A stretch of 64,000 nucleotides of DNA. Origin: an uncultured Verrucomicrobiae bacterium. GTDB taxonomy: Bacteria > Verrucomicrobiota > Verrucomicrobiia > Chthoniobacterales > JAFAMB01. Location: NCBI GenBank assembly GCA_963762565.1, contig CAVXLD010000011.1:32001-96000 (forward strand). The letters run 5' to 3'. Every line of letters begins with the position of its first letter. Within the stretch, counting starts at the first letter, position 1. Position numbers and translations under genes: made by a program. The notes under the pieces are model-generated. The model saw only the letters and a list, made by a program, of their open reading frames with translations, did not search any database and was not told the DNA's origin. This document shows, one piece after another, positions 31,204 through 34,382 of this stretch.

Positions 31204-32589
31204 TCAGGCTTCCGCCATTTCTGTTTGGCCGCCCCAGTTCGCAATCAACCCTGGAAACCGGCAAGCTCGACAATCACTCCGGTCGTTTAAACAGAAGTCT
31301 TCGAAGATCTGTAGCAGACCCTGCTGCTGATAGAGAAAATGAATGTACTGCTGGCCGCGATCGGCGTCCCCGAATAAGCGTAGACACACGATCTCTAGAA
31401 GTGTGTTCCCGAGTTCAGCTCGGATGGACTTGAATGCACTCCAATCAGCATTGCCCGAGATCATCAATAGGGGAAACAATACATTGGCTACGATGTCTTT
31501 AACCCGCGAAGCGCCGATAAGACTGATCCGGCGTGGGGCGGCTGCTGACTGCAAGCTGTAGTGAAAGTCCCAAAATGGATGCGATAGCTTCTGGAACCAC
31601 TCACCGGCTCCGTCCAAGTCGACGCTTAGTTTTCGAAACTCCGACCAGCCAGAGGCGATTTGAGCTAGCGCCCCCAGTCGCCGATGCGGATGATTATTCG
31701 GCCTGCTGCCGCCTAGCCGCCAAAGGTCAGTGCGCAATACCAAATCGTGCAATTCACTTCTCATCTTCCACCAGTGAGTCCACAGAGCGTTCAAATAGCG
31801 GTCATCCTGTTGGGAGGCAGAAAGCGATCGTTCCAGAAAACCGGATAGACCGAACAGGATTGCTTCTGCAGCCGCTCGATCTGATCGAAGCCGGACGAGT
31901 GTGGCTCTCTGTGCGATGATGAGAAAAGGAATCTTGTTCCATTTATAACCAAGACCGATCGCCAGAGCTTGGAAAAGAGCTTCATCGATCCCGTGGATCC
32001 GGATGCTGCGCCGCAAAGCCAGTGCTTTTCTTTCCAACCGAATCCTGGCTGCGGTTTCGATGATTTGGTCCAATTGAGCTTCGGCCAAGTTAGATAGCGG
32101 ACTGCAGCAAGCACCGGGTTTCGCCAGAGCGGATTCGGTATCGGTTAATGTCAGTCCCGTGGTCTTGAGTTGAACCTGTACAACCTCTCGGTGGTCAATG
32201 GTCCGGGTAAAGAAATCCGAGCCGGAATTCTGTAAGAAAAGATGTAGAACCACGTTTCGAAAAGCGGGGTTATCGCCATGCCCGTGCCGTTCCCAATCCA
32301 CCACGTTCATATCCAGCTCGATGTCGCCTTTGAGCTCTTGGGCGCCATCGATTCGAATCACCGTATTCACAAAATCCGGTCCCGGTTCCCGATTCCAAAA
32401 TCCGAACTGAATGACCTCGACTAGCGAACCATTGGTCGCGCGAAAACTGGAGCCGAATGCCCCCGCGTACCAAAGCGCCTGATACTCCAGCTCCGACCAC
32501 CGGCGCGCAAGCAGCGGCTCGTCTTCAACCACCGAAACCTCCAACGCGCGAAGATAAAGGGAGTTAAATGCGTCCACAGGTAAGAACAT
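31204..32589 (-). CDS. DUF2851 family protein
   Basis: G.WN.EPGPDF, GDIE, WERHGH..NPAF.NVVLH and RPNNHPHRRL. Confidence 0.8.
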   Translation of the reverse strand: MFLPVDAFNSLYLRALEVSVVEDEPLLARRWSELEYQALWYAGAFGSSFRATNGSLVEVIQFGFWNREPGPDFVNTVIRIDGAQELKGDIELDMNVVDWERHGHGDNPAFRNVVLHLFLQNSGSDFFTRTIDHREVVQVQLKTTGLTLTDTESALAKPGACCSPLSNLAEAQLDQIIETAARIRLERKALALRRSIRIHGIDEALFQALAIGLGYKWNKIPFLIIAQRATLVRLRSDRAAAEAILFGLSGFLERSLSASQQDDRYLNALWTHWWKMRSELHDLVLRTDLWRLGGSRPNNHPHRRLGALAQIASGWSEFRKLSVDLDGAGEWFQKLSHPFWDFHYSLQSAAAPRRISLIGASRVKDIVANVLFPLLMISGNADWSAFKSIRAELGNTLLEIVCLRLFGDADRGQQYIHFLYQQQGLLQIFEDFCLNDRSDCRACRFPGLIANWGGQTEMAEA

Positions 32590-32667
32590 CTATTCAAAAT
32601 GTTACTACAGGCAAGTCAAAATAACAACATGGATAACTAATGTTAGCAGCCGCCTTTCAAAGACAGA

Positions 32668-33562
32668 TAAAATATCCGCAGCCCCGAAATCCTCCGGGGT
32701 AAAATTACGCAGAACTAGTCGCGCCGTAGGCTTTGCGAAGGCGGATTACGCAGATTACGGTTTGGGGTGTAGTTGCATGACGGAAGGACGACGGTGATGG
32801 GCTTCGGATCGAGCGCTTGGCTGACTTTGAGTATCGGCGAATTTCTAGGCAGAGCTTGCTTGATATACCAACAGAAATAATATATGTATCGTATAGTGGA
32901 CCAGGAAACCTATCGGATCATTGGGGCAGCCATTGAAGTTCACAAAGAGCTCGGTCGGGGGTTTCTTGAACCCGTTTATCAGGAGGCTCTCGAGCTCGAG
33001 TTCAATGATCGCGGCATCCCATTTCGGCCACAGCTCGAGCTGCCGATATTTTATAAGGGCAAAAAGCTCAGAACCCACTATCGCTCCGACTTTGTCTGCT
33101 ACGAGGATATTATCGTAGAGTTAAAGGCACTGGCGCGGCTTGGCGACGGAGAGTTGGCCCAGGTACTAAATTACCTGAAGGCGTCTCGCCGGCAGCGCGC
33201 GCTATTGATCAATTTCGGATCCAAGAGTCTAGAACATGAGCGCGTTGTATTGTCACGCAGCGCCGCGTTTCAATCCGAATCCGAGGATGTCCAAAGTCGA
33301 CCCAGCGCTTGATCCGGAGCCCCATTACTCGTCGAGCCCCTCCACGTAACTACGCCTAAAACCGTAATCTGCGTAATCTGCGTAATCTGCGGATATTAAC
33401 CAAGTTGGCCCAGCGCTTGATCCGGAGCCCCATTACTCGTCGCGCCTCCCCGCGTAACTACGCCTCAAATCGTAATCTGCGAAATCCGCCTTCGCAAAGC
33501 CTACGGCGCGACTAGTTCTGCGTAATTTTACCCCGGAGGATTTCGGGGCTGCGGATATTTTA
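32668..33562. mobile_element. Putative TIR-bounded cassette carrying only a GxxExxY nuclease gene
   Basis: 32668-32747 is the exact reverse complement of 33483-33562 (80 bp); imperfect pairing continues to 32827/33402; an extra tandem right arm lies at 33294-33397. Confidence 0.65.
32884..33312 (+). CDS. GxxExxY protein (PD-(D/E)XK nuclease superfamily)
   Basis: IIGAAIEVHKELGRGFLEPVYQEAL, SDFVCYEDIIVELKA, QVLNYLKA and LLINFG. Confidence 0.92.
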   Translation: MYRIVDQETYRIIGAAIEVHKELGRGFLEPVYQEALELEFNDRGIPFRPQLELPIFYKGKKLRTHYRSDFVCYEDIIVELKALARLGDGELAQVLNYLKASRRQRALLINFGSKSLEHERVVLSRSAAFQSESEDVQSRPSA

Positions 33563-33605
33563 CCTCTTCTCGAGGCGGGAACACCACCGTCCCCTAATCT
33601 GCGGA

Positions 33606-34382
33606 TCACAGTTCCAAGCGTAGCCCATCGTAGGCCAGGGAGCACGATGTCGGGAGCGTCTTGCTAGTCTCGGCGTGACTGACATCGTGGCTAAGATGCG
33701 TGAGGAAGGCGCGCTTCGGCTTTAGCAGCGAGATCAAGCCCAGTCCTTCCGAAATACTGAGATGCGAGAAACGTGACATCTTCAGCGGAGTTCCCAGAAC
33801 TAAAACTTCGACGCCAGCCAAATCGTGTAAACCTTGATCGGAAATGATCTTGCAATCGCTGATGTAGCCGAGGATCGGCTGGCCTTGCTGGCGAATGAGA
33901 AATCCCAGGGTGTGAATCGTGCCATGTTCAACCTGGATCGGGACCACTTCGTTCTCACCCAACATAAAAGGTCCCTCGATGATGTACGGTACCGGTTGAA
34001 CATAACCTGGGAACCTGGCCTCGCCGCTAAAAGCGTATTCGAAGCTGCATGCCAGGCGGTCCATCGTTTCCCGCGACGCATAGATCGGCATCTCGTCGCC
34101 ATTGGCGCTGCTGAATCGTCTTAGATCGTCAAACCCTGAGATATGATCAGCGTGTGCGTGGGTGAAGATCGCGGCGTCCAACCGCGTGATGTTGGCCCTG
34201 AGCGCCTGCAACCGGAATTCAACCGCAGTGTCAATTACCCAAGAAGCCGTAGGAGTCTCGATATAGACGGAGGACCTCCAGCGCTGGTCTCGGCTATCCG
34301 AGGACCGGCACACCGAACAGTCACACAGTGGAACCGGTATGCCTACGGAGGTTCCTGTGCCCAAAAAAGTGGCCGTCAGCAT
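33606..34382 (-). CDS. MBL-fold hydrolase, PhnP/YycJ-like phosphodiesterase
   Basis: LGTGTSVGIP..CDCSVC, THAHADH and THLSH. Confidence 0.9.
   Translation of the reverse strand: MLTATFLGTGTSVGIPVPLCDCSVCRSSDSRDQRWRSSVYIETPTASWVIDTAVEFRLQALRANITRLDAAIFTHAHADHISGFDDLRRFSSANGDEMPIYASRETMDRLACSFEYAFSGEARFPGYVQPVPYIIEGPFMLGENEVVPIQVEHGTIHTLGFLIRQQGQPILGYISDCKIISDQGLHDLAGVEVLVLGTPLKMSRFSHLSISEGLGLISLLKPKRAFLTHLSHDVSHAETSKTLPTSCSLAYDGLRLEL

Follow-up and report, generated by a model that had tools for sequence, protein, structure and literature searches.

The stretch of DNA analyzed here, referred to as the window, comprises 64,000 nucleotides (nt) from the genome of an uncultured Verrucomicrobiae bacterium (GCA_963762565.1, below G000; contig C11:32001-96000), and all positions given without a contig are window positions. 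It carries a small gene of the GxxExxY (PDDEXK_3) family, enclosed by two long inverted repeat arms, in the spacer between a DUF2851 gene and an MBL-fold (PhnP-like) gene. An earlier note on this DNA, made from the letters alone, had described a 142-amino-acid gene between inverted arms of ~160 base pairs (bp), and this description is confirmed: the arms at 32668-32827 and 33402-33562 align over 162 nt with 87.7% complementarity (blastn of the flanks), and a repeat finder recovers 110 nt at 95%. The whole unit folds as a panhandle of -259 kcal/mol, against -144 +/- 4.5 for 20 shuffled sequences (z -25.9), and the inverted pairing is therefore far beyond chance. The features of the locus are listed in Table 1.

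Structure of the locus

The outer 80 nt of the two arms (32668-32747 and 33483-33562) are perfectly complementary and their ends read TA, as had been observed before. TA is not the end of the palindrome, however, since pairing extends outward beyond it, with a 1-nt length difference, as far as CCGCCT at 32650 and AGGCGG at 33578, and the limits lie at 32650 and 33579. The outer 80 nt had also been thought to be built on a 9-mer, but 54 of them belong to two nested mini-repeats, modules A and B. Removing these modules leaves a canonical left array of three 9-mers, TAAAATAT-CCGCAG-ATTACGCAG-ATTACGCAG-ATTACGG. Both modules sit exactly on unit borders and have identical mirror copies in the outer right arm. 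Module A has 76 matches in the genome at up to 2 mismatches, mostly within other CGCAG-type arrays; for module B, up to 4 mismatches give 133, spread over many array types unrelated to one another. The two modules are unrelated mini-repeats, each dispersed independently. Five other palindromes of the same arm family carry one module, A or B, in a single arm only. Because independent repeats are here mirrored exactly in both arms, the perfect outer 80 bp are best read as the result of recent copying of one arm onto the other. The modules look like a further layer of mini-insertions aimed at tandem-repeat arrays.

The right side of the unit is a 108-bp tandem duplication (33294-33401, with the next copy from 33402) that includes 9 bp of old flank, and the unit therefore has two right ends. 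Within it, an 88-nt direct repeat (33294-33381 and 33402-33489) retains 89% identity. The stop codon of the gene had been placed in a duplicated right arm, and it does lie in copy 1, at 33310-33312, with the C-terminal ~18 amino acids encoded within the duplicated arm. The 9 bp that close copy 1 match the flank in a sister species (G004), and copy 2 carries the modules and joins the present flank. Just outside the palindrome, a right-end-like half-site, TAATCTGCGGAT, occupies 33595-33606 and abuts the MBL-fold gene at its stop codon. In the sister species a portion of this half-site (CTGCGG, one base, TCACAG) is retained as the end of that gene.

Table 1. Features of the cassette and its neighbors, in window positions.
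Feature	Positions	Strand	Remarks
GxxExxY / PDDEXK_3 gene	32884-33312	+	142 amino acids; profile matches, alignment, structure model
DUF2851 gene	31204-32589	minus	neighbor of the cassette
MBL-fold / PhnP-like gene	33606-34382	minus	other neighbor of the cassette
Outer left arm: degenerate outer unit (CCGCCT), AAGA, TAAAATAT, first CCGCAG unit	32650-32681		pairs with 33549-33579; fold and consensus of 66 gene-less ends
Module A, 22-nt mini-hairpin repeat nested in the array	32682-32703		exact mirror at 33527-33548
9-mer unit ATTACGCAG	32704-32712		
Module B, 32-nt GC-rich mini-hairpin repeat nested in the array	32713-32744		exact mirror at 33486-33517
9-mer units ATTACGCAG and ATTACGG, inner end of left array	32745-32760		
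Left arm, inner non-array part	32761-32827		~75-78% complementary to 33402-33470 and 33294-33362 (blastn)
Duplication copy 1: inner canonical right end (array 33363-33392) and old flank 33393-33401	33294-33401		matches right arm plus flank of G004
Duplication copy 2: inner part of outer right arm and first array units	33402-33485		
Outer right arm: module B', CTGCGTAAT, module A', CTGCGG, ATATTTTA, AAGA and CCGCC mirror	33486-33579		

A scan for sigma-70-type promoters found none, and the proposal that a leaderless transcript starts from a promoter shortly before the ATG was dropped when the scan gave it no support. One terminator-like site lies within the open reading frame (ORF), on the minus strand, which is within chance level. 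An Rfam scan of 32000-34200 at E <= 1 gave no match. Contigs from two soil-metagenome runs match the element exactly except for one base missing at 32896, four codons past the annotated ATG, where the missing base would shift the start codon; this could be a strain variant or an assembly error.

The encoded protein

Profile searches place the protein in the PD-(D/E)XK superfamily, as had been proposed, with matches to PF13366 (PDDEXK_3; E 1.1e-38, 132.6 bits, cut-off 22) and TIGR04256 (GxxExxY; E 1.2e-40, 138.5 bits, cut-off 35) and no Pfam match other than PDDEXK_3. The signature G26-F-L-E29-P-V-Y32 is followed by D69 and by E79-L-K81. In an alignment of 35 sequences the invariant positions are G24, G26, E29, Y32, D69, E79, K81, Q93, N110 and F111, with Y97 nearly so, and the catalytic residues E29, D69, E79 and K81, along with Q93xxxY97, are intact in this copy. 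E, D, ExK and QxxxY motifs are typical of the RecB/Cas4/lambda-exonuclease clade. A sequence search of the PDB found nothing at E <= 1, and an AlphaFold2 model (mean predicted local distance difference test score 86.4) has a restriction-endonuclease-like alpha/beta fold. Its best fold match in the PDB is the Cas4 protein SSO0001 (E 4.5e-4, template modeling (TM) score 0.51), followed by lambda exonuclease and the Cas4-family protein ACE1 at TM ~0.5. The core of the protein is thus Cas4/lambda-exonuclease-like and keeps every catalytic residue. No transposase domain, whether DDE-type or of another known family, was found in the profile searches, and PADLOC and PHROGs gave no matches at E <= 0.01. 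The entry for GxxExxY/PDDEXK_3 in a survey of PD-(D/E)XK proteins lists its function as 'Unknown' (PMC3424549).

Inverted word arrays flank the GxxExxY family

The arms are a feature of the family and not of one copy. The same genome has 12 GxxExxY loci, and at 11 of these, inverted repeats scoring 36 bits or more flank the gene within 500 bp. Among controls this holds for 4 of 400 intervals of 346 bp picked at random and for 16 of 300 non-overlapped small ORFs (110-200 amino acids). Homologues had been expected to be flanked by such arms more often than random genes, and the excess is large. The family is carried by 52 of 101 sampled genomes of the phylum. When 29 loci were taken from 29 of the other genomes, an inverted repeat with E <= 0.01 was present at 27 and reached at least 36 bits at 15 (shifted controls: 1/55). 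The closest relatives of the protein, taken as the 80 best at 51-64% identity, provided 78 testable loci; 60 have flanking inverted repeats, 40 of them with at least 36 bits. As labelled in the database records, these loci belong to Verrucomicrobiota, Planctomycetota, Acidobacteriota, Chloroflexota, Bacteroidota, Desulfobacterota, Cloacimonadota, Gemmatimonadota, NC10, Lentisphaerae, Proteobacteria, Campylobacterota and one Thermoplasmatota archaeon.

At every armed GxxExxY locus of G000, the arms are runs of 8-10-nt units with a purine-rich 7-nt core. The word differs among paralogues and can be CACAGAG, GGACGCAAA, GATCACAAAG, CACGAATGGA, ATTACGCAG or others. Three pairs of paralogues share an arm family, and these are the pairs with the closest proteins, at 67%, 89% and 83% identity; all other pairs are at most 53% identical, save one at 59% whose words are related (-CAAAG). 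A similar pattern is seen between genomes. In the phylum sample the word of the target copy recurs at 3 of 26 armed loci from other genomes (L059, L062 and L063), and L062 and L063 encode the two proteins in the sample that are at least 60% identical to the target; at L059 the gene is broken by a TAG stop. Among the 60 armed closest relatives, 33 have at least two C[GA]CAGAT units, and several of the remaining ones have one-letter variants such as CGCCGAT, CACAAAT and CACGAAT. In the archaeal locus, from a metagenome-assembled genome (L157), the GxxExxY gene is 60% identical to the target and has arms ATCCGCCGATTACGCCGATT 7 and 3 nt from the protein match, with a word that is a one-letter variant of the target's.

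The arm word thus goes with the protein subfamily. The gene also has a fixed polarity relative to its arms: at 36 of 37 loci the 5' arm shows the purine-rich version of the word when read on the sense strand. Non-coding arms are well kept while the protein falls to 55-65% identity, which implies that the arm word itself is under selection and that gene and arms together are the unit of horizontal transfer.

Mismatches in the arms comprise 32 of sense-strand G.U type, 33 of A.C type and 57 others, with no wobble bias. When each 5' arm was compared with 78 candidate partners, the best one was the cassette's own 3' flank in 16 of 62 gene-bearing cassettes from various phyla, and the median best foreign partner (45.4 bits) exceeded the median own partner (40.8 bits). 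The arms behave as arrays of a conserved word in the first place, with some concerted evolution of both arms where the gene is present.

Gene-less palindromes

The gene-less 9-mer palindromes mentioned in the earlier note are numerous. G000 has 66 dispersed pairs of ATTACGCAG-type anchors lying 100-320 bp apart (median ~148 bp), and a looser count gives ~110 convergent CRCAGAT array pairs, by far the largest such family in the genome. None of the 66 interiors matches the gene by blastx, and the idea that gene-less copies are decayed or recent deletion derivatives of cassettes was rejected for lack of any such trace. The interiors are mostly unique, with the largest clusters having 9 and 5 members, and their matches to cassette DNA consist of array units only.

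The two arms of a gene-less palindrome are no more alike than the arms of different palindromes. Equal unit numbers were found in 27 of the 66, compared with 29.6 +/- 3.7 for shuffled partners, and identical unit strings in 6, compared with 7.6 +/- 2.5. This, together with the conservation of a sequence word across phyla, makes it doubtful that the hairpin is the essential form of the element, as had been supposed. The intergenic spacers of G000 are crowded with array-armed palindromes of many words, often nested. For instance, ATTACGCAG palindromes lie inside CACAGAG-word palindromes at C1:96150-96297, C1:1073372-1073519 and C1:1085314-1085494, CACAGAG being the arm word of another GxxExxY paralogue of this genome.

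Gain, loss and movement of the unit

Five genomes of the same genus (G001-G005) were used for comparison. All five keep the MBL-DUF2851 gene pair, and none has a GxxExxY gene between them, so that no relative was found to keep the gene at this site without arms. In G004 the site holds a gene-less palindrome of the same arm family with the same flanks, in G002, G003 and G005 an unrelated filler of ~400 bp, and in G001 a spacer of ~190 bp.

The clearest case of gain is the nearest paralogous cassette, C1:643905-644434, which has the same arm family and a protein 67% identical to the target. Relative to G003 it is a clean 553-bp insertion with flanks 91-92% identical and a clean empty site. It occupies a 12-13-nt spacer between a stop codon and the next ATG and is co-oriented with both neighboring genes. 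Its ends lie ~15 nt outside the first unit, and there is no target duplication longer than 2 bp, which leaves the suggested TA duplication without support. The other clean event is a gene-less copy, C1:322120, which G003 has and both G005 and G002 lack; here a target duplication of 7-8 bp is possible, and the ends lie 21-32 nt outside the first unit. The comparison of target duplications rests on these two events. A discrete unit of gene and arms that is gained and lost, as had been proposed, agrees with the clean insertion and with the absence of the gene from the target site in all five relatives. Taken with the distribution described above, these comparisons show that gene and arms form a single unit in inheritance, in gain and in transfer between phyla.

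Empty sites were also sought in the same-genus genomes for the gene-less copies C1:589833, C1:687703, C1:895716, C3:533759 and C1:1021230 and for the cassettes L001, L002, L006 and L009, and the sites were mostly occupied or rearranged. At C1:1021230, the orthologous G005:C157 and G002:C108 hold ~6 kb of extra DNA between the same flanks. The L001 cassette (C1:116793-117315) is inverted in G002 (C118:10464-10967) with its flanks unchanged, as expected from recombination between inverted arms. At the site of another cassette, G002 has a gene-less hairpin of a different word. Contigs from four soil-metagenome DNA runs break at the target arms. The shorter side of their joints (such as 32713 to 33362-33517) spans just 20-31 nt, and the joints are compatible with other gene-less copies of the repeat; these contigs provided no evidence of an excised or circular form.

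Orientation relative to host genes

The target gene is antisense to both of its neighbors, an observation that had been made before and taken as what an insertion would look like. The orientation stands, but it is not the rule for the family. Elsewhere the GxxExxY gene is co-directional with its upstream gene at 58 of 63 and 22 of 26 loci and antisense to both neighbors at 1 of 63 and 0 of 26; within G000, 3 of 11 cassettes, the target included, are antisense to both. With crude gene calls, the arms start a median of 8.5 nt past the upstream stop codon, and 20 of 42 start between -10 and +20 nt. Many 5' arms lie ~5-20 nt from the start of the protein match. The target copy is therefore best regarded as atypical, being antisense to its neighbors, duplicated at its right end and carrying nested repeats in its arms. 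More generally, our reading gives the arms two purposes, as word arrays recognized on DNA and as a stem that may make the insert harmless in a transcript.

Other gene families with flanking repeats

Two further gene families in G000 have flanking inverted repeats. One is that of the TIGR02436 four-helix-bundle genes, with such a repeat at E <= 0.01 in 7 of 8 cases and a score of 36 bits or more in 4 of 8. These loci lie outside the window (C11:16010-16330, C7:441183-441500, C3:44257-44848, C5:382239-382502 and others), and their arms are inverted arrays too, but of different words of 7-9 nt, among them GTGATTG, GGAGTGGT and GTAAGCA. According to the passages of PMC4990558 that deal with them, the founders of this family lie in 23S ribosomal RNA (rRNA) intervening sequences (IVSs), which are cut out by RNase III.

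The other family is Y1_Tnp, with 10 genes above the family cut-off, 6 of them flanked by inverted repeats. Five of these six repeats are classical hairpins of the repetitive extragenic palindromic (REP) type, unrelated to the 9-mer arrays, and for this reason a REP-associated tyrosine transposase (RAYT) is unlikely to be the mover of the 9-mer arms. The RAYT-like genes at C7:408772, C3:712536, C3:55497, C9:102253 and C1:119032, all outside the window, have flanking inverted repeats of 47-98 nt in which classical REP hairpins, for example GTCCCGTAGGGAC, are found. At C4:78656, a weaker Y1-like gene has a flanking repeat that resembles the ~400-bp filler found between the MBL and DUF2851 genes of G002, G003 and G005.

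A proposed selfish nuclease cassette and its alternatives

We consider the target to be a slightly worn, oddly oriented copy of a selfish nuclease-gene cassette of ~0.5-0.9 kb with word-array arms, in which the nuclease acts at the arms and host repair or replication does the copying; we give this account as a whole a probability of roughly 50%. That the nuclease drives the spread of the cassette is, on our inference, the best-supported reading. The cassette consists of a minimal Cas4/RecB/lambda-exonuclease-type gene and two inverted arms. Each arm is an array with 2-4 units, whose length of 9-10 bp is close to one turn of the helix, around a 7-nt core that reads CRCAGAT in the target subfamily. 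The nuclease, acting as a multimer, could bind the phased words and nick or cut at the arms, after which host repair or replication would copy the cassette into short intergenic spacers. Gene-less arm pairs could be copied likewise, with the nuclease acting in trans. In sense-oriented cassettes, the complementary arms could also anneal to each other within the host's transcript, so that the insert is looped out in the manner of rRNA intervening sequences; the host would then tolerate the insertion. The history of the target copy may have begun when a cassette, or a gene-less palindrome that was filled later, settled between the MBL-fold gene and the DUF2851 gene. A tandem duplication (108 bp) of its right end would have followed. 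Finally, two unrelated mini-repeats may have entered one arm and reached the other by arm-to-arm conversion, which would account for the perfect outer 80 bp.

Several points weigh against this account. The link from the nuclease to the arms and to movement is drawn from sequence patterns, and a lone PD-(D/E)XK nuclease is not known to carry out strand transfer. The gene-less interiors are mostly unique, while a copy-and-paste family would be expected to share its interior. The insertion junctions are not uniform, as the two clean events differ in duplication and in end position. The unrelated TIGR02436 family has the same array-armed layout in G000, so the architecture does not need the GxxExxY nuclease. 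Lastly, the target copy is antisense and rearranged and may therefore be inactive.

The arms may instead act in RNA, where they would form the double-stranded stem of a read-through transcript and RNase III would cut it, or the stem would loop the cassette out, with some other mover and a nuclease unrelated to the process. Much of the layout is what such an IVS-like cassette should have. Outside G000 the genes are mostly co-directional with the upstream gene and hardly ever antisense to both neighbors, the arms hug those neighbors (by the same crude gene calls), the short distance from 5' arm to protein match leaves little room for a promoter of the cassette's own, and the C1:643905-644434 cassette sits in a tiny spacer between co-directional genes. 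The whole target unit folds as a panhandle, 16 of 62 cassettes have, out of 78 candidates, their own 3' flank as the best match to the 5' arm, and the four-helix-bundle genes, known from 23S IVSs (PMC4990558, in the passages cited above), share the layout in G000. On the other hand, RNase III needs duplex RNA only, yet a specific word is conserved across phyla, the mismatches show no wobble bias, and gene-less arms fall out of register no less often than randomly chosen partners do. The target copy runs antisense to both neighbors, with no sigma-70-type promoter and no informative terminator in the scan. As a full explanation we regard this as unlikely, at about one chance in five in our estimation, put loosely; it can coexist with the selfish cassette. 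Similarly doubtful is a bolder extension of the cassette account, in which GxxExxY and four-helix-bundle cassettes would form a new inter-cistron mobile class, with a Cas4-like mini-nuclease that reads the helically phased 7-nt words of its own arms and copies the cassette in sense into spacers of a few nt between co-transcribed genes, in many phyla and archaea, and arms that loop the insert out of messenger RNA.

Less probable again are two readings that detach the gene from the spread of the arms. Under homing alone, the nuclease would cut gene-less arm pairs and the gene would be copied in by homologous repair through the shared arms, the pairs having spread by other means. Some homing endonucleases are of the PD-(D/E)XK type, the orthologous site of G004 has a gene-less palindrome from the target's arm family between the same flanks, there are about two genes for at least 66 gene-less pairs of the target's word, and the gene-less interiors are unrelated to the gene. 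Yet the C1:643905-644434 cassette entered a naive site without prior arms, and a nested entry should have doubled the arms, where the target shows a single left end and two right ends, which leaves homing alone improbable. Alternatively, the arrays could be generic, fast-evolving structures of this lineage, made by slippage, arm copying or another enzyme, with GxxExxY a DNA-binding or repair protein among operator-like sites. The spacers of G000 are indeed full of nested palindromes of many words, two unrelated gene families (GxxExxY and TIGR02436) share the layout, 10 Y1 transposase genes are at hand, and Xanthomonas has convergent heptamer arrays with no linked gene in the account given by the relevant section of PMC4692102. 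Local slippage cannot explain why the word follows the protein clade through many phyla and an archaeon; moreover, the Y1 genes carry unrelated REP hairpins, gene and arms form a clean presence/absence unit, and there are no PADLOC or PHROGs matches. We hold such a passenger or regulator role to be just as improbable as homing alone.

The distinction matters for GxxExxY/PDDEXK_3 as a whole, a very large family whose function is not known. If gene and cognate arms together make up a single selfish unit, the family gains a testable function, the recognition and cleavage of its own arm words, and researchers would have a natural set of matched protein/DNA-word pairs for the study of sequence specificity. 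It would also account for some of the many short-repeat palindromes found in the intergenic DNA of genomes of the Verrucomicrobiota type and others. The usual sense placement, with a stop codon close on one side and a start codon close on the other, is relevant to the tolerance of operons for inserts. Should the inter-cistron class be real, it would tie together the GxxExxY family, intergenic tandem-repeat palindromes and the origin of ORF-bearing rRNA intervening sequences.

Comparison with known systems

At the level of the protein, the nearest known relatives are Cas4, the RecB nuclease domain and lambda exonuclease, which share the E, D, ExK and QxxxY motifs and are the best structural matches of the model. 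The target differs from them in that its core is only about 120 amino acids long, without Fe-S (iron-sulfur) cluster cysteines and without helicase or partner domains, and the TM-score is only about 0.5.

At the level of the element, the closest likeness is to REP sequences, their inverted doublets (REPINs) and RAYTs. In these systems, as the relevant parts of PMC3116915 and PMC3337134 describe them, an enzyme gene is bracketed by inverted repeat copies, the same repeat is dispersed as many gene-less inverted doublets, and each enzyme lineage has its own repeat; G000's own Y1 genes show this layout. However, the cassette enzyme is a PD-(D/E)XK protein and not a Y1 HUH tyrosine transposase, and the Y1_Tnp genes of G000 lie elsewhere. 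The arms also differ, being tandem arrays of a 7-nt core with a 9-10-bp period instead of single short hairpins. A REP is defined, in the section of PMC3733652 concerned, as an imperfect hairpin, 20-40 bp short, that carries a conserved tag (GTAG or CGTC), and such a tag is absent from the tandem 9-10-bp units of the cassette arms. Furthermore, G000 has 12 copies of the cassette gene, compared with about one RAYT per genome, and the whole GxxExxY cassette is transferred between phyla.

The 23S rRNA IVSs of Leptospira and of Coxiella burnetii (S23p) offer another parallel. The parts of PMC4990558 that treat them describe a small ORF between complementary termini that form a long stem, a sporadic distribution pointing to horizontal transfer, and an insert tolerated within the host transcript. 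In addition, G000 genes of the IVS-type four-helix-bundle family have array-built inverted arms of their own. The target differs in lying between protein genes and not in rRNA helix 9, 25 or 45, in agreement with the Rfam scan, and its ORF belongs to another protein family. Excision by RNase III is a feature of the IVS, and what GxxExxY arms conserve is a specific repeated word and not complementarity alone.

The gene-less arm pairs of G000 look like the convergent heptamers of Xanthomonas and the heptamer repeats of Nostoc. For Xanthomonas GGGAATC tandem heptamers, 70 and 75 cases of two nearby convergent sites are given for two genomes in the pertinent section of PMC4692102, which treats them as quadruplex-forming simple repeats and links them there to no gene; the term 'nuclease' is absent from its text. 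Free-standing homing endonuclease genes, and MITEs (miniature inverted-repeat transposable elements) with their parent insertion sequences (ISs), are alike in having a nuclease gene inside a sequence that is also found gene-less, many gene-less copies, and presence/absence between relatives. GxxExxY cassettes differ in that arms and gene are gained together at naive sites. They have no consistent target duplication over the two clean events, and the gene-less interiors are not conserved and share no internal-deletion sequence. A classical IS would have a transposase of a recognized family, which the target cassette does not.

In the literature that could be searched, with most subscription journals outside it, no description was found of GxxExxY genes with cognate array arms. 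GxxExxY cassettes resemble both REP/REPIN-RAYT systems and ORF-bearing IVSs but differ from them in defining features, namely enzyme family, repeat type and location, and they are apparently an undescribed cassette of a very widespread kind.

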